A stretch of 64,000 bases of DNA from Thermoanaerobaculia bacterium (GTDB taxonomy: Bacteria; Acidobacteriota; Thermoanaerobaculia; Gp7-AA8). Every line of letters starts with the position of its first letter. Position 1 is the first letter of the stretch. The stretch spans positions 14,161-78,160 of the forward strand of contig JADGNY010000004.1 of the NCBI GenBank assembly GCA_017883235.1, given 5' to 3'. Below the pieces are notes generated by a model that was not told the DNA's origin, ran no database searches, and saw only the letters and a program-made list of their open reading frames with translations. Shown piece by piece: positions 27,207 through 38,536 of the stretch. Made by a program: the position numbers and the translations under genes.

Positions 27207-28823
27207 GTGGCAGCCCGGAGCGCTGGCGTCTCGCCGGCTGGCCGGGCGGAGCCTGCCCTGAGCGAAGCCGAAGGGTCTCGCCGCCCGTGGGCAAGACCCA
27301 ATACATTCGCTGGTAACGGTAACCCCGGCGGCGAGACGCCGCCGGGCCAGCCGGCGAGACGCCAGCGCTCCGGTGCCGTAGCAGCGGCACTGCTCCTCCT
27401 GGCCGCCAACGCATTCGCCGGCTCCCAGGTCACGGCCACCCACGCCGCCCTGGCGACATCCTCCCCCGCGGCGACGCAGATCGGCCTGCGTATCCTCAAG
27501 AGCGGCGGCAATGCCATCGACGCAGCCGTCGCAGTCTCGTTTGCGCTCGGCGTGCTCGAGCCGAAAGCGACAGGCATCGGCGGCGGCGGATTTCTCATCT
27601 ACTACGAGGCCGAGACCGGCGGCGTCTGGACGCTCGACTTTCGCGAGGCCGCGCCGGCAGCGGCGAAACGGCCGCCAGGTACCGCGGCTTTCATCGGTGC
27701 GACGGCGGCGGCCATTCCTGGATTCGTGGCTGGACTCGAGGCGATGCACGGCCGCTTCGGCTCCCTTCCATGGCGCGAGCTTCTCGCGCCCGCCAACCGT
27801 CTGGCGAAGGACGATCTGGCCAAAACTCTGCAGCGCCTCGGCGAACAGGGAGCACGCGATTTCTACGCCGGGGAGCTGGCCAACAAGGTGGTCGAAGCGG
27901 TGCGCGCGGCCGGCGGCACGTTCTCGCTGCGCGATCTGCGCGACTACAAGCCGGTCTGGCGCGCGCCGGTGCGCATCGCCTTTCGGGGCGCCGACATCTA
28001 TACCGTCGCACCGCCGGCGGCCGGCGGTCTGATGCTCGGATCGATTCTGAAGATCGTGAGTGGACTCGCTCTGGGCAAGCCGAACTACATTCACCTGCTC
28101 GCTGAGGCCGAGCGGCGCGCGGCGATCGACCGCGACAAGTTTCTGGCCGACCCTGCCGGGGAACGCGTGCCGATGAGCGATCTCCTCTCCGATGAGCGGG
28201 CCGCCCTCTGGCGCGCCTCGATCGATCCGAACCGCGTGACGCCGACAAGTGGATTGACAGAGCCCGGCGCGGTCACAACGCAATCGGCCCACACGACGCA
28301 CATCTCCATCGTCGATGCGCACGGCAACGTCGTTTCGCTGACGACCTCCGTCGGCGACGAGAGCGGAGGCGGCTTTCCCGTGCCCGGAACCGGCGTCGTG
28401 CTGAACACCGCGATGAACGATTTCGGCGGCGCGCCGAACTCCGTGGCCGGCGGCAACCGCCCGGCGTCACCCCTTTCGCCGGTGATCGTGCTGCGCGGGG
28501 GAAAGCCGGTCCTCGCCATCGGCACGCCAGGCGGCCCGACCATCCCGACGACGATCGCGCAGATTCTGCTCGACATCCTCGCCTTCAACCGCCCGCTCGG
28601 AGAGGCGATCGCGGCACCCCGTTTTTCCCAACAGGCAACGCCGGAAGAAGTTACCTACGAGCAGGGCCGCACGCCGCAATCGGCGGTCGATGCTCTGCTT
28701 GCCATGGGGCACGGCGTTCGCGCACGCGAGCCGTTCGGCGACGTGCAGGCGGTGTCGATCGACGGTAGAAGGCTGCTGGCGATCTCCGATCCGCGTGGCG
28801 GGGGGGCGGCGGGGGGGTATTAG
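27207..28823 (+). CDS. ggt: Gamma-glutamyltranspeptidase.
   Basis: TTHISIVDAHGNVVSLTTSVGDESGGGFPVPGTGVVLNTAMNDF and GTPGGPTI are GGT motifs. The signal-like segment AVAAALLLLAANAFAG begins right after the repeat. The only in-frame canonical start upstream of the signal peptide is a GTG at 27201/27207 before the MITE, so the start is uncertain. The track ORF 26757.. overlaps coaX and was rejected. Confidence 0.8.
   Translation: MAARSAGVSPAGRAEPALSEAEGSRRPWARPNTFAGNGNPGGETPPGQPARRQRSGAVAAALLLLAANAFAGSQVTATHAALATSSPAATQIGLRILKSGGNAIDAAVAVSFALGVLEPKATGIGGGGFLIYYEAETGGVWTLDFREAAPAAAKRPPGTAAFIGATAAAIPGFVAGLEAMHGRFGSLPWRELLAPANRLAKDDLAKTLQRLGEQGARDFYAGELANKVVEAVRAAGGTFSLRDLRDYKPVWRAPVRIAFRGADIYTVAPPAAGGLMLGSILKIVSGLALGKPNYIHLLAEAERRAAIDRDKFLADPAGERVPMSDLLSDERAALWRASIDPNRVTPTSGLTEPGAVTTQSAHTTHISIVDAHGNVVSLTTSVGDESGGGFPVPGTGVVLNTAMNDFGGAPNSVAGGNRPASPLSPVIVLRGGKPVLAIGTPGGPTIPTTIAQILLDILAFNRPLGEAIAAPRFSQQATPEEVTYEQGRTPQSAVDALLAMGHGVRAREPFGDVQAVSIDGRRLLAISDPRGGGAAGGY
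27217..27371. mobile_element. MITE-like palindromic repeat element, copy B, between coaX and ggt and in frame with ggt.
   Basis: GGAGCGCTGGCGTCTCGCCGGCTGGCC...GGCCAGCCGGCGAGACGCCAGCGCTCC. It has the same terminal inverted repeats and internal GAGCCTGCCCTGAGCGAAGCCGAAGGGTCTCGCCGC as copy A. Confidence 0.8.
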
Positions 28824-28824
28824 G

Positions 28825-29245
28825 CGCATCGCTCCAATTTGATGCGATATCGGTCCGATTTGGAGCGGCATCGATCCAATCTGATGCGGTATCGGTCCAA
28901 TCTGATGCGGCATCGGTCCAATCTGATGCGGCATCGATCCAATCTGATGCGGCATCGATCCAATCTGATGCGGCATCGATCCAATCTGATGCGGCATCGA
29001 TCCAATCTGATGCGGCATCGATCCAATTTGGAGCGGTATCGATCCAATTTGGAGCGAATTCGATCCAATTTGGAGCGGCATCGATCCAATTTGGAGCGAA
29101 TTCGATCCGTCTGGAGCGGCATCGATCCAATTTGGAGCGAATTCGATCCGTCTGGAGCGGCATCGGTCCAATTTGGTGCGATTTCGGACCAATTTGAACC
29201 GGTACCGGAACGCTCCGATGCGACATCGGAACGGCAGATATCGAT
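28825..29245. repeat. Tandem array of about 20 units of 21 bp (consensus CGGCATCGATCCAATCTGATG) with higher-order 41-42 bp periodicity.
   Basis: Units are readable directly. Subfamilies end in ...AATCTGATG (units 3-9) or ...AATTTGGAG (units 10-16), alternating CGGCATCGAT/CGAATTCGAT. Unit junctions create GATGC-G-GCATC palindromes. The stretch is GC-poor relative to the genome. Confidence 0.9.
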
Positions 29246-29442
29246 ATCAGCAACCTATAGGTTCCTGTTTCCGCAACGACGTGGTTACGGAACCTTTTGC
29301 CGGGCTGATACGTCTTACCTGAGTCGAATCGATTCAGACCACGTCACAGCGCATCGCTGCGGCGTGAAATGGCAGGCCAGGCATGGCCAAACGGTAGTCC
29401 CAAAACTCACGGAAACACGTAGTTGATGAAAGGAGAAACAAC

Positions 29443-30084
29443 ATGACAGTCACCCCGAGCCCTACACCCAGTCCCGACAGTCCGGCGGTCCTCGCCGCCA
29501 CAACAGCCGACGCGATCGCTGCGCAGCTTCGCACCATCGCCAGTACCTTGCAGTCAGCCGTGCCCGGTCTTCTGAAGTTCGACGCACGCCAAGTCAGGCG
29601 CATCGTGGCCAGCGCAAAATTCGGCAGCGAGTCCCTCGTGCCGACGATCAACGTTGTCTCTTCGGTACCCAAGGCGAAGGACCGCGACATGTTCGACGTC
29701 CACGCCGGTCAGCTCGCACTGCAGTACCGCGATCAGGTCCTTCCGCTGGCGAAACAGATCGGTGAGTTTGCCGCGGACCTCGAGTTCACGATCGACAACA
29801 TGCTGGCCGCTGCCGCCGTTCAAGCTCTCCAGACATACAGGTGGGCGCAGCACGTGGTCCGGCAGCCGGACGGCGCCGAGTTGCAGAGCTACGTCGATCA
29901 GATGTCGAGCGCGGTGAAGAAAACGATGAACCACCGCAAACCGGCCGCCTCGGCCCCGGCACCAACCCCAACACCCGCCGGCGCTCACGGCTTTCTGGCG
30001 CCGAACATCATTCCAGTCAAAAGCAACGAGCCCGAGGACGTTGCGGACCGCTTCGAACAGGCCCTGCGAGACGTAACCGAATGA
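29443..30084 (+). CDS. Hypothetical protein (Ala/Pro-rich ends).
   Basis: 213-aa ORF followed by a canonical terminator; no recognised domain. Confidence 0.5.
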   Translation: MTVTPSPTPSPDSPAVLAATTADAIAAQLRTIASTLQSAVPGLLKFDARQVRRIVASAKFGSESLVPTINVVSSVPKAKDRDMFDVHAGQLALQYRDQVLPLAKQIGEFAADLEFTIDNMLAAAAVQALQTYRWAQHVVRQPDGAELQSYVDQMSSAVKKTMNHRKPAASAPAPTPTPAGAHGFLAPNIIPVKSNEPEDVADRFEQALRDVTE

Positions 30085-30090
30085 TCAGGG

Positions 30091-30128
30091 ACAGGCGTAG
30101 CGCCGCCGGGCGCTACGCCTGTTTTTTC
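30091..30128 (+). terminator. Rho-independent terminator.
   Basis: ACAGGCGTAGCGCC-GCCG-GGCGCTACGCCTGT followed by TTTTTTCTC. Confidence 0.8.
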
Positions 30129-30815
30129 TCAAGCGCCGCGCGTCATCCTGCGCACCCCTTCGCCCGTGGCAATCAGCGCCTCGGTGGCCTCGACCGGGAA
30201 GAAGCCCGTTTCGACGACGCCGGCAAGTTTCCGAATATCGGCCACGACATCCGCGATGTCACTCTGCCCCGGAACGCGGACGTCGAGGATGAGGTGCCCT
30301 TCATCGGTAATGCGCGGCTGCCCATCGCGAAGGCGAAGCACCGGCGTGAGGCCCATCGCCGCGAATCGCTTCTCGAGAACGTCGCGCGCGAACGGCGTCA
30401 CTTCCACCGGCAGCACGCCAACCCCGAGCCGTTCGACGATCTTCGACTCATCGGCGATGACGATGAACCGCTTGGCTTGCTGCTCGACGATCTTCTCGCG
30501 CAACAGCGCGCCGCCGCGGCCTTTGATCAGCCGCAGTTGGGCGTCGATCTCGTCCGCCCCGTCGACAGCGAGATCGAGCGGCGAGATCTCCGCGAGGGCG
30601 AAGAGGGAAATGCCGAGCGGCCGCGCCTGATCCTCGGTCTGCTTCGAGGTGCACGTGCAGCGGATGTCGCGCAGATCGCCGCGCGCAAGCACTTCGCCGA
30701 GGAGGGTGACGAACTCTTTTGCCGTGCTGCCTGTGCCGAGGCCGAGCGACATACCGGATCGAACGGAACGGAGCGCTTCACGCGCCGCTTCAATCTTCTG
30801 TCGCTCGGCCTTCAC
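30129..30815 (-). CDS. rpiA: Ribose-5-phosphate isomerase A.
   Basis: GMSLGLGTGSTAKEFV (RpiA GxGTGST), FIVIADESK and DGADEID motifs. GTG start proposed at 30815. The 548-aa track ORF is a read-through from the upstream pseudogene fragment. Confidence 0.88.
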   Translation of the reverse strand: MKAERQKIEAAREALRSVRSGMSLGLGTGSTAKEFVTLLGEVLARGDLRDIRCTCTSKQTEDQARPLGISLFALAEISPLDLAVDGADEIDAQLRLIKGRGGALLREKIVEQQAKRFIVIADESKIVERLGVGVLPVEVTPFARDVLEKRFAAMGLTPVLRLRDGQPRITDEGHLILDVRVPGQSDIADVVADIRKLAGVVETGFFPVEATEALIATGEGVRRMTRGA

Positions 30816-30837
30816 AGGGTCGAGTGTAATCGAGAGA

Positions 30838-31640
30838 CTACGTTCTACGCGCCAGCGCCACGAAGCCGAGAGCGGCTGCGAGCAGTCCGAGCATCCAGGT
30901 GCTGAGCGCCGGGATCTGGCCGGCCGGGAAGATCGGAACGGTCTTCGGGCGGTGCGTTGAATGATCGACAGATCGGTCGAGGTGGCGAAGTTGACGATCT
31001 GGCCGAGCTCCGTGGCCGACAGACACTGGGTAGCGTTTGGAGACAGAAGATCGAGCGCGGCAGCTTGCGCGTTCGCCGCGGCCTTCGTTCCCTGGCCGGT
31101 GGCAAAGTTCAGGATTGCCTTCGTCTGTCCGGGAGCCAGCGTAATCGAGTACACCCAGAACGGATTGTCGTCTCCGTCTACGAAATTGATGTTGGAGACG
31201 GGAGTTGGTGCACCAGGTCCCCAGAACACGTGGCCGATGCGCGGATCGCTCGAAGTATTGCCGGAGAAGTTCTGAAACGACGTAGCCCAGGTGTCGGCGG
31301 TCGTGACGACGTTATCCCCGCTCGATGAGCTGACGATTCGCGTATTGCTGTCAGACCCGAGATTGTTGCTGGTGATCATCGTGAATGTGATTGGCGCACC
31401 GGTTGTGTTGGTGAAGTAGTTCATCCAGCGAATGAAGCGGTCGTTCGTCGGGACGAAAACCTTTCTGGTGACCGAGAGCCCGCCGATCGCCTTCGCGGGG
31501 TATTGGACCTGACGATTCGTGCACGCCGGGCCCGCGGGGCACCGTAGCGTCGAAAGCCGCGGGGCCGTTCTGGTTGAAGAACGAGAAATTCGCGTTGCCG
31601 GTCTGGCACGGGCCACCGCCAGCCGAGCGCGCCCCGAGGG
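30838..31640 (-). pseudogene. Truncated/frameshifted paralog of the IPTL-CTERM protein at 33674..35368.
   Basis: About 75 % DNA identity to 34150..34790 of the full paralog. The segment NRQVQYPAKAIGGLSVTRKVFVPTNDRFIRWMNYFTN... is in one frame; the sorting tail VPIFPAGQIPALSTWMLGLLAAALGFVALARRT* is in another frame. The DUF11 domain is missing. Confidence 0.6.
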
Positions 31641-32046
31641 GCCAGCTTTGCGATACAAGCTCAGTTGAACGCAGGTGACGCTCAGGCTGAAAAAACGCTT
31701 GATGCGTAAGCGGCGTCTGTCAATTGCGATTCCCACCCAGCATGCTGCGTAAGAGCTCTCGCCCGAACGCCTCACGCATTCTCGTTTCTTCTTTCGGCGC
31801 GGAAAGCACGGTGCGCACGTGCTCGTGAATGAGTGTCGGATCGGGAACGTAAGCGCGGACGAGGTACCAGACCGAGGCGGTGCGAATCGCCTCAGATGAT
31901 GAATCGAAAAACGCCTGACAGAGAGTGCGTTATGTCAATCCGAGCATGACGCCGAGGGGGCAAGCATTAGCCGCGTCGCCGTGGCCGGAAGGAGGTCGAG
32001 ATCTACCGCTCTCTGCTGTAGCGGTTGATCGGGCCTTCTTCTTGCT

Positions 32047-33673: not shown

Positions 33674-35368
33674 TTATGTCCTACGCGCGATGGCGATCAG
33701 TCCGAGCATGGCGCCGAGGGCGCAGAGCATCCATCCGCTCAGGGCGGGGATCGCCGATTGGGGCAGAAGCGGTACCGTGTACGAGGAGGTGTTATTGGCA
33801 GGATTGGTATCGGTCGTGGCGCTCGATACCGTGGCAGTGTCTCCAAATGTCCCAGGCGAAGCAACGTTGGGCGGAGTCATTGTTAGCGTGATCGGGTTCG
33901 CGGGGCCGACGTTCAGCGTGGGAAGGGTGCAGGTGACCGTTCCAGCGACGTTGTTGCAGGTCCAGCCAGTTCCCGAAGCGCTGCCAAAGGTTGCTCCGGC
34001 AGGGACTACGTCGACGACCGATACACTTGCCGCCGGAGAAGGTCCGTTATTCGTCACGGTGATTGTGTAGGTCATCGGCGTGTTGCCGAATGCCATGGTC
34101 GCGGACGAAGTGACGTTGATTGCGAGATCGGTCGCGGTCAGGAAGTTGACGATCTGGCCGAGCTCCGTGCCCGAGAGGCATTGCGTCGACGTCGCAGGAA
34201 GAAGGGCCAGCGCCGCAGCCTGCGCGTTCGCGGCGGCCTTCGACGGCTGGCCGGTGACGAAGTTCAGGATGGCCTTGGTCTGTCCGGGGGCCAGCGTGAT
34301 CGAGTAGACCCAGAACGGGTTGTCGTCTCCGTTCGCGAAGAAGATATTGGAGACGGGAGTCGGCGCCCCGGTCCCTTGCAGCACGTGACCGATGCGAACG
34401 TCAGACGAGGTGTTGCCCGAGTAGTTCTGAAAGGAGGAAATCCAGGTGTCGGTCGTCTGAGCCACGGCATCACCGTTCGAGGAATTGACGATGACGGTGT
34501 TGGAATCGGAGCCAAGATTGTTCGCGGTGAGCATCGTGAACGTCACCGGCGAGCCGGAGGTGTTCGTGAAGAAGTTCATCCAGCGGGCGTAGGTATCGTT
34601 CGGCGGAACGTAGACCTTTCTGCTGACCGAGAGCGCGCCGATCGTTTGCACCGGGAATGCGATCTGCCTGTTCGTGCAGTTCGCACCGGCAGGGACGGTT
34701 GCGTCGAAGACCGCCGGTCCGTTCTTGTTGTAGATCGTGAAGTTGGCGTTGCCGGTTTGGCACTGAGTGGTGGCATTCGTCAGGCTCACGCACAGCGTCT
34801 GGTAGCCGTCGAACATGTCGTTCAGAGTCGACATGGTGGTGCCGCCGCCGCTCGTCGTGGCGGCCACGGAGTGCGTGTACGAGGCTTCCGACGCGGCGCC
34901 GGATGCGGACGAGGTGGTGCTGAAGGTGATGTTGGTGTTGATGAAGTACTTCAGACCGCTGGCGTCGATCAATCCGATCGATCCGGTCGCTGTGGCTCGG
35001 GGATGGAAGGCTTGCGTCAGCGGCGTCAGGCCGTGATGCCGTTTGGCCAATTTGGCAGCCTTCTTCGCCAGGTTCTGAGCGACAGCGGCCGCATGTCTTG
35101 CCGCCCGGTCCGAGGCAACATCCGTGCCCTTGGGCGTCAGGTCGTGAAGCCGTTTGGCCAATTTGGCAGCCTTCTTCGCCTGGTCCTCAGCGACGGCGGC
35201 CGCGTGTCTTGCCGCCTGGTCCGACGCAGCATCGGTAGCCTGCGGCCGCAGGGCCGCCTGATCGGCCAGCGCACGGACCACCGAGGATCGATCGGTAACC
35301 GCGACATCAGCGTAGAGAATCGTTGACGAAAGGAGGAGAAACACCACCACCGCAATTGCTTTTTTCAC
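33674..35368 (-). CDS. Secreted DUF11-domain protein with an IPTL-CTERM-type C-terminal sorting signal.
   Basis: GTG start after GGAAAGAGAAAGAGG; signal peptide; a duplicated 38-aa ASDQAARHAAAVA..AKKAAKLAKR unit; DUF11 (ITVTNNGPSPAASVSVVDVVPAGATF). C-terminus IPALSGWMLCALGAMLGLIAIARRT resembles the IPTLSEWG-TM-RRR sorting domain. Confidence 0.75.
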   Translation of the reverse strand: MKKAIAVVVFLLLSSTILYADVAVTDRSSVVRALADQAALRPQATDAASDQAARHAAAVAEDQAKKAAKLAKRLHDLTPKGTDVASDRAARHAAAVAQNLAKKAAKLAKRHHGLTPLTQAFHPRATATGSIGLIDASGLKYFINTNITFSTTSSASGAASEASYTHSVAATTSGGGTTMSTLNDMFDGYQTLCVSLTNATTQCQTGNANFTIYNKNGPAVFDATVPAGANCTNRQIAFPVQTIGALSVSRKVYVPPNDTYARWMNFFTNTSGSPVTFTMLTANNLGSDSNTVIVNSSNGDAVAQTTDTWISSFQNYSGNTSSDVRIGHVLQGTGAPTPVSNIFFANGDDNPFWVYSITLAPGQTKAILNFVTGQPSKAAANAQAAALALLPATSTQCLSGTELGQIVNFLTATDLAINVTSSATMAFGNTPMTYTITVTNNGPSPAASVSVVDVVPAGATFGSASGTGWTCNNVAGTVTCTLPTLNVGPANPITLTMTPPNVASPGTFGDTATVSSATTDTNPANNTSSYTVPLLPQSAIPALSGWMLCALGAMLGLIAIARRT

Positions 35369-35462
35369 GACTACCTCTTTCTCTTTCCACGGAATCCGAA
35401 CGCAGCGGAGTTCTCTGGTTTGGAGTAGACCGCCGTGGAGTTTAACGGATGAACGCTCCGGA

Positions 35463-37652
35463 TTGCTCATAAAATTGAAGCCAATGACCTACCAGCGGCC
35501 CGCAAAAACAATAATCCCCGTCTTTCTCTCCCTAATTGTCGCACTTTCGGCGATCTCTTGCAAAAAAACTGAACGTCCGAACGTCCTGGTCATCACTATC
35601 GACACCCTTCGCGTCGATCACCTCGGCTGCTACGGTTTCACGCTGGCCCACACGCCCGCGATCGACAAGCTGGCCGGCGAGAGCGTGCGCTTTACCGATG
35701 CCATCGCAGCCGCGCCGATCACGATGCCGGCGCATTCTTCGATCTTCACCGGCCTCTTTCCCCCGGCTCACGGAGTTCGCGACAACGGCGCATACGCTCT
35801 CGGAGAGAACGCGGTCACGCTCGCCGATCGCCTCCACGCAGCCGGTTACACCACACATGCATTCGTCTCCGCGCTGGTGCTGAACCGCCGCTACAACCTC
35901 AGTAAAGGCTTCGAGACTTACGACGACGACCTCTGGGCCGAGGACGACCCGAAGCTGTTCATGATCCGCGAGCGCCAGGCGCCGAAGACCGCCGATCGCT
36001 TTCTGCAGTGGTTCGGCGACTGGAACAAGTCCCGCACGAAGCCGTTCTTCACCTGGATTCACTTCTTCGACCCACATCAACCATACCGGCCCTCGCTCGC
36101 CGACATAGCCGTCTCGGTCTCTCCGTACGACGCCGAGATCGCCGGTGTCGACCGGCAGATCGGAAGGATCGTCGATACTCTCCGCAAGACCGGCCAGCTC
36201 GACAACACGCTCTTGATCCTGATGGCCGATCACGGCGAAAGCCTCGGCGAGCACGGCGAGCAGACGCACGCCATTTTCGTCTACGACGCCACCGTGCACA
36301 TCCCTCTGATGATTCGCTATCGGCCGGCGTTCACCCCATCCGTCTACTCCGCCCCGGTGCGCTCGGTCGACGTCGTTCCCACGGTGCTGGGCATCCTCGG
36401 CCTGCCGGGAGGCGAATCGACCGATGGGCACGACCTCGGTGCCGCGATTCGGGGGAAAGAGCCCGCGCCTCAGCTTCCCCAGTACTCGGAATCGCTCCTT
36501 TCAGAAGTCGGCTTCGGCATGGCGCCTCTGTTCGCGGTCCGCGACGATGGCTACAAATACATCCGTGCTCCCCGCCCCGAGTTGTACGACCTCCGCAACG
36601 ATCCGCACGAGCTGAACAACATTCTGGCGAAGTTCCCGCGCATCGGCGCGAAGCTCGACGCGGAGCTGACGAAGCTGATGGCAGACAGCAGCCGCCACGC
36701 GGTGAAGGCGGCGGCCAGCCCGATGACCCGTGAGACCGAGGAGTCGCTGCAGGCGCTCGGCTATCTCGCGTCGCACGCGGAACGTTCCGGCATGCAGGGA
36801 ATGGATCCGAAGGACGGACTGCCGATTCACAACAAGCTCGAAGAGGCTCGACATTTTGCGCAGCAGAAGAAGTGGGATAAGGCTGAGGCCAAGTGCCTGG
36901 AAGTCGTGGCGCTGACGCCGCGGAACGTTTCCGCGATCAATGTCCTCGGCCTCATCGGCGTCAAGACCGGCGACCACGTGAAAGCGGTGAAGTACTACCA
37001 GCAGTCGCTGGCCATCGATCCGAAGCAGTTCCGCGTGTTCGGAGTTCTCGGCGGAATCGCACTCACCGAGGGCGACCTCGATAGCGCCCGGAAGAATTTT
37101 CAGACCGCGCTTGCCATCAATCCCCACTTCGCGGAGGCCATGGCCAATCTGGGATTCATCGAAGCGCTGCGTGGACGCGATCTCGCGGCCGAGCAGTGGT
37201 ATCGAAGGGGAATGGCGGCCGACCCGACCTTTCCCCGCGTCTACCGGAGGCTCGGCGATCTTTACTACGACCGGAAAGACTTCGCCCACGCCTACGCCAA
37301 CTACACGAAAGTCATCCAGATCGAGCCGTCGGACGTTCGCGCGATCGTGCAGGCCGGAAACTGCGCGCGCCGCCTCAACCACAACGACGAAGCCGACAAA
37401 TTCTTCCGCCGCGCTGAAGTCCTGCGTCCCAACGGATGGATTCCGACCTACAACCGGGCCTGTCTCATGGCCGCGGCCGGAAAGCCGCAGGAAGCATTGA
37501 CGACGCTCGAAGCCCTGGCCCAGCGCCACACCGTTCCCATCGCCCTCATCGAGCGAGACACAGACCTGGCCTCGATGCGGTCGCTGCCGGGCTACGCCGC
37601 GCTGAAGCGAAAACTGACGGATACCGGCGACGACGACATCGAAGACAACTGA
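35463..37652 (+). CDS. Sulfatase-like hydrolase/transferase (alkaline phosphatase superfamily) fused to C-terminal TPR repeats; lipoprotein.
   Basis: NVLVITIDTLRVDHLGCYGF and MPAHSSIFTG N-terminal motifs; lipobox AISC. C-terminal 300 aa are TPR repeats (AINVLGLIGVKTGDHVKAVKYYQQSLAIDP...). Confidence 0.8.
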   Translation: MLIKLKPMTYQRPAKTIIPVFLSLIVALSAISCKKTERPNVLVITIDTLRVDHLGCYGFTLAHTPAIDKLAGESVRFTDAIAAAPITMPAHSSIFTGLFPPAHGVRDNGAYALGENAVTLADRLHAAGYTTHAFVSALVLNRRYNLSKGFETYDDDLWAEDDPKLFMIRERQAPKTADRFLQWFGDWNKSRTKPFFTWIHFFDPHQPYRPSLADIAVSVSPYDAEIAGVDRQIGRIVDTLRKTGQLDNTLLILMADHGESLGEHGEQTHAIFVYDATVHIPLMIRYRPAFTPSVYSAPVRSVDVVPTVLGILGLPGGESTDGHDLGAAIRGKEPAPQLPQYSESLLSEVGFGMAPLFAVRDDGYKYIRAPRPELYDLRNDPHELNNILAKFPRIGAKLDAELTKLMADSSRHAVKAAASPMTRETEESLQALGYLASHAERSGMQGMDPKDGLPIHNKLEEARHFAQQKKWDKAEAKCLEVVALTPRNVSAINVLGLIGVKTGDHVKAVKYYQQSLAIDPKQFRVFGVLGGIALTEGDLDSARKNFQTALAINPHFAEAMANLGFIEALRGRDLAAEQWYRRGMAADPTFPRVYRRLGDLYYDRKDFAHAYANYTKVIQIEPSDVRAIVQAGNCARRLNHNDEADKFFRRAEVLRPNGWIPTYNRACLMAAAGKPQEALTTLEALAQRHTVPIALIERDTDLASMRSLPGYAALKRKLTDTGDDDIEDN

Positions 37653-37707
37653 CGCGCACCGTCGCGCCTTTGGACGTTTTGGAGTCGCTGGTGAAGCCGG
37701 CGCAAAG

Positions 37708-38536
37708 CCGCGGAGCGGCGCTATCTACGTAGCCCACAGCGTGAGCTGTGGGACTCAGATACGAACCGTTTTCAAGCCGCGGAGCGGCGACATCTCGGAG
37801 TGATCACTCCTACATATACCGCTCGTCGCACGCCAACATCATGGGCGACGTTCGAGATGTCGCCGCTCCGCGGCTGGAGATTAGCCCGCATTTCTCACAG
37901 CCTTCTTGAAGCACTTGCGACTCCCTTAATCGAGAGTCCTTCTCCCCCCGCGGTTTCTTGCGGGGGGAGAAGGGGGTTCTGACCGGGGACTTCGAGGACA
38001 TAAACCGGAGACATCGAGGACGGCTCGAACATGATGGATCCGGGGGTATTTGGATGCCTTGGAGGAACCCGATGAGCGCGAAGGAAGCATTGATGTGGGA
38101 TGTAAACAACGGGATGAGCGTGACCATGGCCGCGGAGGTTCACGGCGTGAAGCGCTCGTGCGCATACAAGTGGGTAGATCGATATCGGCGGCTTGGCTTG
38201 GCCGGACTGGAGGAGATGTCGCGAGCACCGGAGGGTTCTGACCGGGTGCCGAAGGCGGATGAGGGGGCGGTTCTCGCGCTGAAGTTGAGTGTTTTCATGA
38301 GTTTCCCACGCCCGTTCCTGAAAATAGTTCACTGCTCGGCAAGAGCCAACGCCCCCTCATCCGCCTGTCGGCACCTTCTCCCCCAGCTGAAAAGCGCTGG
38401 GGGAGAAGGCTCTCGACGAGTAACAGGGTGGCGACGATTCCATGTGAGAGTGTGAGAAATGCGGGTTAGCCCGGGTTAGCCCGATCACAACCCCACAGCT
38501 CACGCTGTGGGCTACGTAGATTGCGCCGCTCCGCGG
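37708..38536. mobile_element. Degenerate IS-derived element with 44-46 bp terminal inverted repeats and a remnant HTH ORF.
   Basis: Left end CCGCGGAGCGGCGCTATCTACGTAGCCCACAGCGTGAGCTGTGGG and right end CCCCACAGCTCACGCTGTGGGCTACGTAGATTGCGCCGCTCCGCGG are near-perfect reverse complements. Internal ORF 37958..38455 carries MSAKEALMWDVNNGMSVTMAAEVHGVKRSCAYKWVDRYRRLGLAGLEE, an IS481/IS3-like transposase N-terminal HTH. Two internal CCTTCTCCCC...GGGGAGAAGG hairpins. Confidence 0.55.

Follow-up and report, generated by a model that had tools for sequence, protein, structure and literature searches.

Locus, array and flanking genes

The element described here is a tandem array of about 21-nt units in a 64,000-nt stretch of Thermoanaerobaculia DNA (the window; contig JADGNY010000004.1, positions 14,161 to 78,160), considered together with the unannotated gene p213 that follows it and the promoter-like motif lying between them. 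Gene order is coaX-ggt-array-p213-rpiA, syntenic with a 6.6-Mb Thermoanaerobaculia chromosome. Encoded are type III pantothenate kinase (CoaX), gamma-glutamyltranspeptidase (GGT), p213 and, convergently, ribose-5-phosphate isomerase A (RpiA). The 3' part of ggt is located at 27399-28823 on the + strand (Pfam G_glu_transpept, E=1.9e-123; true start slightly upstream), with a TAG stop codon at 28821-28823. The first array base is 1 nt past this stop codon.

The array occupies 28824-29199 (+ strand) and in a manual layout consists of 18 head-to-tail units (16 of 21 nt and 2 of 20 nt), 376 nt in total. About three degenerate units follow at 29200-29263 (+ strand; CGGTACCGGAACGCTCCGATG, CGACATCGGAACGGCAGATAT and CGATATCAGCAACCTATAGGTT, read from the layout). 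They are similar to the units (CGGCATCGGAATGATCTGTTC) of L045, a more distant lineage, and the segment is kept in the paralogous loci termed site D below. Tandem Repeats Finder (TRF) reports a single array at 28826-29180, period 21, 17 copies, 84% matches; the background for arrays of this period is thus one per whole window. The 21-mer CGGCATCGATCCAATCTGATG has 11 matches at ≤3 mismatches, against 0 in 100 shuffles, all confined to the array and none elsewhere in the window. A first-pass annotation, made from the letters alone, had described about 20 units of 21 bp; the tandem array is real, with the count to be read as 18 units followed by some three decayed ones. Its two subfamilies are likewise real (..CTGATG, units 3-9; ..TTGGAG, units 10-16), as is its 41-bp higher-order repeat, which is exact (29076-29116 = 29117-29157). 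One of its two units has 21 nt and the other 20, so the array departs from a strict period of 21. G + C content of the array is 0.519, against 0.626 for the window, as the description "GC-poor" implied. Unit 1 (GCGCATCGCTCCAATTTGATG) is common to the site C class of arrays described below. The consensus core of the whole family is ATCGATCCAAT.TG.

The tetranucleotide GATC is present in 12 of the 18 window units. One GATC per unit occurs in three array types, at differing unit positions (window 28824-29199, L045 5395-5760, L047 5430-5850); this was noticed post hoc, and its rough probability by chance is ~0.01. It is a possible hint of binding that depends on methylation.

Gene p213, promoter motif and 5' hairpin

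Gene p213 (29443-30084, + strand) is an open reading frame (ORF) of 213 aa with a good Shine-Dalgarno sequence (AAAGGAGA). The family comprises 62 clusters at 90% identity and, by profile search, 241 clusters at 50% identity. Members bearing a source name are Thermoanaerobaculia metagenome-assembled genomes (MAGs). Matches were not detected in Pfam, NCBIfam, PADLOC, PHROG or other curated families, nor in the PDB by sequence or by fold. The protein (pI 6.1) is predicted to be all-helical (AlphaFold2 model, mean pLDDT 73.5); it has a linker rich in Pro and Ala, and its C-terminal helix is acidic and conserved. The model has no ribbon-helix-helix (RHH), helix-turn-helix (HTH) or winged-helix fold.

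Upstream of p213 is a motif of the extracytoplasmic function (ECF) sigma type (29289-29315, + strand): GGAAC (29289-29293), a 17-nt spacer and CGTCT (29311-29315). The form G[GTA]AAC-N16/17-CGTC is found at the equal position upstream of p213 homologs in L021, L032, L038 and L041-L048, where L plus a number denotes a related locus; in L050 an ECF-type motif was read from the sequence. A -35 element GGAAC(TT) and a -10 element CGTC are hallmarks described for ECF promoters (PMC3397946). The motif is presumably an active ECF promoter. A hairpin and T-run resembling an intrinsic terminator directly follow the gene (30107-30131, + strand), so p213 is probably monocistronic. Dependence on an ECF sigma factor is likewise probable, because the motif is conserved and matches the described signature; an ECF operon beside the p213 homolog of L057 fits this assignment. 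An ECF sigma gene was not detected in the window by tblastn with the L057 sigma, a weak test, as ECF sigmas diverge quickly.

The predicted 5' end of the p213 mRNA carries a conserved hairpin, CUGAGUCG-AAU-CGAUUCAG (29319-29337, + strand). Its pairing is kept by compensatory stem changes: GUCUGA..UCAGAC in L043, L045 and L047, GUGUCUG..CAGGCAC in L042. A 20-bp near-palindrome, CAGCAACCTATAGGTTCCTG (29248-29267, unstranded, read from the sequence), ends ~20 nt before the -35 element. It recurs with dyad-preserving variation at p213 loci that have the window's unit type (CAGCAATCTATAGTTTGCTG in L032, CAGCAACATATAGTTGTCTG in L041) and is a possible operator, separate from the array.

Linkage of the array to p213

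Contigs with homologs were fetched for progressively more distant members of the p213 family, and their upstream regions were inspected. A tandem array of ~21 nt is present upstream of a p213-family gene in 8 of the 9 lineages examined, in 7 of them no more than ~560 bp from the start. In six lineages (the window's, L042, L043, L045, L047 and L050), which are those where G[GTA]AAC-N16/17-CGTC was found, 20-90 bp separate the end of the array from the ECF-type motif downstream. A position conserved relative to a promoter, as in these six, is what an operator or upstream activating sequence (UAS) array would have. Genomes whose arrays use the window's unit type are termed the W lineage.

Array sites were lettered by their flanks. 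Site A has the order ggt, array, p213 (window, L005, L008). Site D is a second locus, without ggt (L006, L021, L032, L038), in which p213 paralogs of 85-90% identity (tblastn; 85-88% in the four loci named) stand directly downstream of the array; the ~170 nt between array and gene are homologous between the two sites. In L041, p213 is 98% identical and the array is kept, while ggt is replaced upstream by an HD-domain gene. The array therefore belongs with p213 and not with ggt, to which it had earlier been tied; the comparison connects it to the downstream gene and promoter. Since a strain as near-identical as L041 has a different upstream gene, ggt is taken to be incidental upstream context.

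Divergent homologs keep the arrangement with other units. Locus L042 has 63% identity to p213 and the unit GCGGCATCGCAAGCGTTCTTT. L043 has 57% identity, the same coaX-ggt-p213-rpiA synteny and a unit of about GCGACATCGAAAAGATTGTTT. L045 has 53% identity and ~16 copies of CGGCATCGGAATGATCTGTTC; L047 has 52% identity and the unit TTGCTCCGGATCAACGTTTCT. L050 has a distant homolog and ~14-15 copies of GCATCTCCAAACGGAGATGT. L054 has a very distant homolog, with ~14 copies of GTCCTCGCCGAGGATTGGCCCA at a distance of ~560 bp upstream. The gene preceding the array is divergent in both L042 and L054. In L057 the array is degenerate (~21 nt; GAACGTGA-T-TCACGTTC units) and stands 1.8 kb upstream of the p213 homolog, beyond a divergent operon of ECF sigma and putative anti-sigma genes (L057 1640-2270 and 2520-3558). 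An array was not found within 4 kb in L056 (P0130), the sole other paralog retrieved from the complete chromosome. The subfamily of L057 and L056 is the most distant one and lies upstream of a Peptidase_M4 gene.

Array retention extends to p213 homologs whose aligned part has ~26-30% amino acid identity. Between lineages the period (21-22 nt) and the position stay, while the unit sequence is wholly replaced. Retention upstream of nearly all p213 genes despite such divergence and unit turnover argues for a function tied to the promoter region. Preferred, tentatively and at somewhat less than even confidence, is a phased array of protein-binding sites that would control the ECF-type promoter of p213 and might be bound by p213 itself. 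This keeps as mechanism the binding of a regulator, which the first-pass annotation had offered as its second choice.

Short-read contigs with p213-family genes typically stop at the array (L001, L049, L052, L055).

Unit symmetry, folding and curvature

Most lineages have a unit made up of a left arm of 5-8 nt, a 4-nt spacer, a complementary right arm and ~1 nt. The W-lineage unit is TTGGAGCG-GCAT-CGATCCAA, with a near-universal mismatch at pair 3. The L045 unit is TTGTTCCG-GCAT-CGGAATGA, the L042 unit CGTTTGCG-GCAT-CGCAAGCG and the L050 unit CATCTCC-AAAC-GGAGATG. Perfect inverted repeats are 4-29 times above shuffles in every array tested except L041. Such dyad-symmetric units are as expected for dimer binding sites.

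Tandem palindromes necessarily create a second dyad at every junction, which accounts for TCCAA-T-TTGGA and similar palindromes noticed earlier. The junction palindrome GATGC-G-GCATC exists, at only 6 junctions and not at every one as had been stated. GATG ends are not enriched before GCAT across the family (Fisher P=0.69); it was therefore rejected as a selected feature and is a local feature of one homogenised block. ATCGAT, said to occur in each unit, is present in 9 of 18 only.

The symmetry may also be read at the RNA level. Transcribed from the + strand, the array would form a string of ~20-nt hairpins acting as a terminator or insulator that shields the p213 promoter from read-through and stabilises upstream mRNAs; or it would be a repeat RNA that partners p213 as ToxI repeats do the toxin in type III toxin-antitoxin systems. 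This is rather unlikely. Arms are swapped between lineages for different complementary arms (TTCCG/CGGAA, TTGCG/CGCAA, CATCTCC/GGAGATG, TCCTCG/CGAGGA), as RNA pairing would have it. Single-unit RNA hairpins are strong in L042 (-10.9 kcal/mol), L050 (-14) and L054 (-12.9), with z of -3.8 to -5.8. At sites A, B and C the stop codon is followed at once by the array, and arrays without p213 run in the direction of the neighbouring genes. A terminator role has been proposed for hairpin clusters (PMC8355165). Against these points, the dominant GATG unit of the window (-2.5 kcal/mol, z +0.14) folds no better than shuffles, and the L047 unit likewise. Folding of the whole array is as good on one strand as on the other (z -6.5 and -6.8); this is uninformative, because the same holds for any tandem palindrome. 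Terminator-like hairpins already precede the array in L045, L047, L050 and site E. The divergent upstream gene in L042 and L054 leaves no upstream transcript to carry the array as RNA. Rfam gave no array match at the gathering score or E-value threshold; sub-threshold matches were miRNA-precursor hairpin models. The helical p213 has no ToxN-like fold, and since the promoter motif lies between array and gene, the two are not co-transcribed from the conserved promoter.

Wobble pairs used as a strand test disagree between lineages. G.T exceeds A.C on the + strand in L042 and L043, and apparently in L045, L050 and L054 by reading (small, non-independent counts), in favour of RNA. The W lineage has the opposite ratio (A.C 403, G.T 144), besides its pair-3 mismatch, and thus no consistent G.U-over-A.C bias for + strand RNA pairing. 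In this lineage the half ATCGATCCAAT is more informative and conserved than its dyad partner arm, and the GGAG-to-GATG change is uncompensated. Asymmetric conservation fits recognition of a direct-repeat motif better than a hairpin; together with the missing upstream transcript in L042 and L054, it favours an array that binds protein at the DNA level. As hairpin strength and motif vary between lineages, the constants are the period (~21) and the position.

A CsrB-like sponge RNA (minus-strand loop GGA) was considered and rejected: GGA is unconserved (none in L042, within the stem in L045), and W-lineage hairpins are weak.

Intrinsic shape was considered separately. In an AA-wedge model (a crude curvature predictor), the window array is the most curved 376-bp stretch: its end-to-end/contour ratio is 0.27, whereas 168 tiles average 0.92 and go no lower than 0.40. 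Nucleoid proteins or RNA polymerase might sense, without base-specific recognition, curved or superhelical DNA that the 21-bp periodicity would create upstream of the promoter. The low G + C content (~11 points below the window average) agrees with this, as do the W GGAG, W GGAC and L050 units, which are more curved than 97-99% of shuffled-unit arrays. The W GATG, L042, L043, L045, L047 and L054 units are not above shuffled units, and units of 20, 22 and 23 nt break the phase. With only 3 of 9 unit types exceeding shuffled units, curvature alone is the weaker explanation, and a purely structural role is improbable.

Dispersed arrays: sites, copy number and rearrangement

One genome per species was scanned with a two-unit core pattern, and metagenomes in a separate scan. 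The genome scan gave 6 loci, all Thermoanaerobaculia MAGs, 4 of them in the complete 6.6-Mb chromosome OY970284.1. The metagenome scan gave 33 loci, comprising 27 true arrays and 6 chance matches of low G + C content, which were discarded (L015, L017, L027, L029, L034, L040). True loci total 33 (6 genomic, 27 metagenomic) and fall into at least 8 site classes by their flanks. The suggested search for other copies of the 21-mer thus has a positive outcome: arrays occupy at least 8 unrelated intergenic chromosomal sites. In addition to sites A and D, arrays are found after a rhomboid-like gene, between convergent genes and bracketed by an inverted repeat (site B); after an MCE-like gene, facing an ABC transporter (site C); between nfeD and an SPFH/stomatin gene (site E); upstream of a gene resembling those for outer-membrane proteins (site F); between a dehydrogenase gene and a large + strand gene (site H); and upstream of blaI-blaR1 (site J). 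Arrays without p213 lack the promoter motif, except at site C, where a 55-nt remnant of promoter and hairpin follows the array. At least some of these orphan arrays therefore derive from p213 loci.

Of 453 units counted, 367 have 21 nt and 77 (17%) have 20 nt; the commonest single unit type is the 20-nt CGATTTCGATCCGTCTGGAG. Copy number at orthologous loci is 18 (window), ~17 (L005) and 11 (L041), and the unit mix varies too. The arrays accordingly behave as variable number tandem repeats (VNTRs) with local homogenisation. Evolution by unequal exchange and copy-number variation, both anticipated in the first-pass annotation, are borne out by these differences, the former also by the 41-bp higher-order repeat.

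All-against-all BLAST of the flanks revealed no leader, tail or terminal inverted repeat (TIR) common to all sites; target-site duplications were not examined. Flank segments are shared only between the site pairs A-D, A/D-C, B-I and C-G, and an inverted-repeat flank is present at site B only. Mobility in the manner of a MITE (miniature inverted-repeat transposable element) is thus unsupported.

Synteny breaks fall exactly at or within arrays. In L041 (5510-5530) the p213 side of site A is joined to the HD-domain gene. L011 has the tail of site C with a new head, and L031 the tail of site B with a new head. The combination B2, the head of site B with a new tail, recurs in 5 samples (L009, L013, L018, L026, L037). 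Chimeric flanks suggest recombination breakpoints inside arrays; singletons could be assembly chimeras. The pattern suggests that arrays mediate rearrangements.

These features bring in a self-propagating minisatellite without sequence-specific function, of the BrickBuilt or mycobacterial interspersed repetitive unit (MIRU) kind. Hairpin-prone units would expand by slippage and unequal exchange, be inherited with their neighbours and spread by duplication and recombination, with effects limited to genome rearrangement and copy-number polymorphism. Such a minisatellite agrees with the differing copy number and unit mix at orthologous loci, with higher-order repeats and blocks homogenised locally, with the spread over unrelated sites (among them spacers between convergent genes) and with the breakpoints suggested by L041, L011, L031 and B2; no fixed motif and no stable hairpin is kept in all lineages. 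Retention upstream of p213 in 8 of 9 lineages is hard to square with neutral, deletion-prone DNA, and the ~21-nt period is kept while the sequence turns over. A minisatellite of this kind is a serious competitor, to be regarded as doubtful.

BrickBuilt of Porphyromonas gingivalis provides a precedent, with 23-nt tandem repeats at 19 intergenic sites (PMC4596501). It is a minisatellite/MITE of spacer-less tandem units in 1 to ~23 copies, dispersed in ~19 strictly intergenic copies, with leader and tail segments that end in IS5-like TIRs (PMC4596501). Common to BrickBuilt and the 21-nt arrays (33 true loci) are spacer-less tandem units of ~2 helical turns with imperfect, locus-specific variants, dispersed intergenic copies restricted to one lineage, mis-called hypothetical ORFs, and partial leader or tail segments retained at some loci. 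Unlike BrickBuilt, which has no tie to a gene family, the 21-nt arrays are ancestrally tied to the p213 promoter region, and they lack a common leader, tail or TIR. The two belong to different phyla and have no sequence similarity. As in MIRUs and intergenic VNTRs, the arrays are dispersed, variable in copy number, often placed right after stop codons or in operons, and co-oriented. MIRU units are 40-100 bp long and carry short ORFs coupled to the neighbouring genes; the units described here are of 20-21 nt, non-coding and linked to one gene family.

Several site-specific details were noted. At site B (L003 4910-4965 and 5300-5345) a ~35-bp inverted repeat (GCGGCnnnGCCGCGTTGTCGGTTATCGG...) brackets the array and holds TCGGTTR motifs spaced with a 7-nt period, together with small hairpins that resemble terminators and face each of the convergent genes. 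At the nfeD-SPFH site a conserved segment, TCGTAAnCCATTGACAAA..., containing TTGACA, which resembles a sigma-70 -35 element, stands between a canonical terminator and the array (L002 5440-5499; also upstream of arrays in L020, L022 and L035). A similar segment, TCGTAAGCCATTGAG, follows a terminator upstream of the array in L050 (2085-2120). These segments may be promoters reading into the arrays or may reflect shared ancestry of the nfeD-SPFH and L050 loci.

Partition, replication and coding readings

The array is not a plasmid partition site; it belongs to an array family scattered through Thermoanaerobaculia chromosomes. The first-pass annotation had compared it with sopC/parC-type centromeres and iteron clusters. 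Formally, tandem units of ~2 helical turns with internal dyads beside a gene do resemble parC-parMR, sopC and iterons-rep. The context is one of chromosomal housekeeping genes, in synteny with the 6.6-Mb chromosome. At least 4 arrays occupy unrelated sites of this one chromosome, whereas one partition system per replicon would be expected. Genes for ParA/ParM/TubZ, ParB/ParR/SopB or Rep were not detected at any locus examined, and Par families were absent from the gene tables of 12 related loci, where the suggested check for partition-type genes was made. The array region DNA and the p213 protein had no match among 72,556 plasmids, and the repeat pattern none among viral contigs. The p213 model lacks the RHH, HTH and winged-helix folds. 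For iterons, no Rep family was found among the neighbours; DnaA boxes and an AT-rich DNA unwinding element were not searched for. A plasmid-type centromere or a replication iteron cluster is accordingly very improbable.

A gene encoding a heptad-repeat protein across the array is effectively excluded. Because the unit leaves five of its six frames open, chance alone would yield ORFs across the array, and such ORFs are at times called by gene finders. In the window, the ORFs have no start codon or ribosome-binding site and overlap ggt, as already recognised. Units of 20 nt shift the frame. Only 3 matching predicted proteins were found in 5.8 billion clusters, differing in frame or strand and all joined to Arg-rich antisense junk; the strand of called ORFs is not the same from locus to locus. 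Public hypothetical ORFs across arrays (L041 5395-5928, L043 3692-4081, L045 5370-5732, L050 2204-2902; P0231-P0233) are annotation artefacts, given the open frames and the inconsistent strands and frames.

Proposed function of the array

As a phased array of protein-binding sites, the array would be a cis-acting DNA element of the p213 upstream control region. Its units, of about two helical turns, would be sites for a sequence-specific, probably oligomerising protein. Lying directly 5' of the ECF-type promoter, the bound sites may adjust its activity, silence it or insulate it. If the binder is p213, as may be the case, the system would be autoregulatory. Slippage and unequal exchange would expand, shrink and homogenise the array, and in the W lineage copies of it, sometimes with promoter remnants, would be carried to other intergenic sites.

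Binding of a protein to the units, and p213 as the binder, are suggested by comparison of sequences. The turnover of units with period and position kept fits co-evolving pairs of protein and site. Parallel divergence of repeat sequence and protein makes p213 a candidate ligand, as does analogy with ParR-parC, omega, Rep-iterons and ToxIN.

Several observations weigh against such a role. A candidate DNA-binding gene consistently adjacent to the arrays was not found. The number of sites, 15-20, is far above the need of ordinary operators. The earlier proposal that sites are phased on one DNA face at two helical turns is weakened, since 17% of family units are 20 nt long and the phasing drifts. 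Strong unit hairpins in some lineages are at odds with a pure operator. W-type arrays also stand between convergent genes (sites B and C), with no promoter to regulate. Arrays without p213 are co-oriented with neighbouring genes in 4 of 4 informative cases (P ~0.06), a hint of a role linked to transcription. Orphan arrays between convergent genes, co-orientation and strong hairpins keep the minisatellite and RNA explanations alive.

A bolder, speculative version, drawn by analogy and rather improbable, would treat p213 and the upstream 21-nt arrays as a cognate protein-repeat module. In each lineage the protein would polymerise on its own co-evolving array, either as DNA, like ParR on parC, or as RNA, like ToxN with ToxI, and gate an ECF-dependent stress gene; orphan arrays would be genome-wide landing pads in some genomes.

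Comparison with known repeat systems

In the systems parC-ParR of R1 and pSK41, sopC-SopB of F, the omega heptads of pSM19035 and iterons-Rep, arrays are bound by the product of the adjacent gene. These systems are borne on plasmids or phages, include an NTPase or a replication origin, and have a binder of RHH, HTH or winged-helix fold. Shared with the present arrays are short phased tandem units of variable number, a position beside a gene, often upstream and overlapping its promoter, and co-variation of repeat sequence with the protein. The present arrays differ in being longer (11-18 units in counted loci), chromosomal and present at several loci.

Type III toxin-antitoxin systems have in common with the p213 locus a direct-repeat array immediately upstream of, and co-oriented with, the gene, a hairpin between the two and a repeat specific to the cognate protein lineage. 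ToxI units are ~34-45 nt long, number 2-6 and share with the toxin a transcript that starts from a promoter upstream of the repeats; the ToxN enzyme is a beta-rich endoribonuclease. At the present locus the promoter motif is between array and p213, and p213 is all-helical, with no PADLOC or Pfam match.

Like repetitive extragenic palindromic (REP) sequences and bacterial interspersed mosaic elements (BIMEs), the units are short, palindromic, clustered and intergenic at gene 3' ends. REP/BIME elements have alternating orientation, linkers and a REP-associated tyrosine transposase (RAYT); here units are strictly head-to-tail and no RAYT is present. [quoted passage not shown] Units abut without spacers, there is no leader, and no cas family was found in the scanned flanking genes or in the called genes of related loci; the initial rejection of CRISPR is thereby confirmed.

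Dispersed intergenic minisatellites are already known. New is the persistent linkage of an array family to an unannotated, ECF-promoter-driven gene family in Thermoanaerobaculia; no mention of tandem repeats in this class was found in the literature searched. Thermoanaerobaculia are abundant, barely cultured Acidobacteriota of soils and sediments, and to our knowledge almost nothing is known of their regulation. The locus offers a testable system of four parts: an unannotated gene family, an ECF-type promoter, a 5' hairpin and an upstream array that keeps its period and position while its unit sequence turns over. Repeat-protein co-evolution has so far been described mainly from plasmid centromeres, iterons and type III toxin-antitoxin systems; if a protein binds the arrays, they would be a new chromosomal example. 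For annotators of MAGs it matters that the arrays interrupt short-read assemblies, give rise to spurious ORFs and are probable mediators of rearrangement. They also offer VNTR markers for strain typing.

Other features of the window

The only Rfam match in the window at the gathering score is the Acido-Lenti-1 small RNA (37706-37752, - strand; 37.2 against 37 bits), consistent with acidobacterial origin. A truncated paralog (30834-31775, - strand) of a DUF11/CLIPPER-domain protein (33674-35470, - strand), with 70% identity over 203 aa, shares a long ORF with rpiA, upstream of rpiA, and is probably a pseudogene fragment. The DUF11/CLIPPER gene contains a 111-bp tandem duplication at 35022-35233 (1.9 copies, 90% matches).

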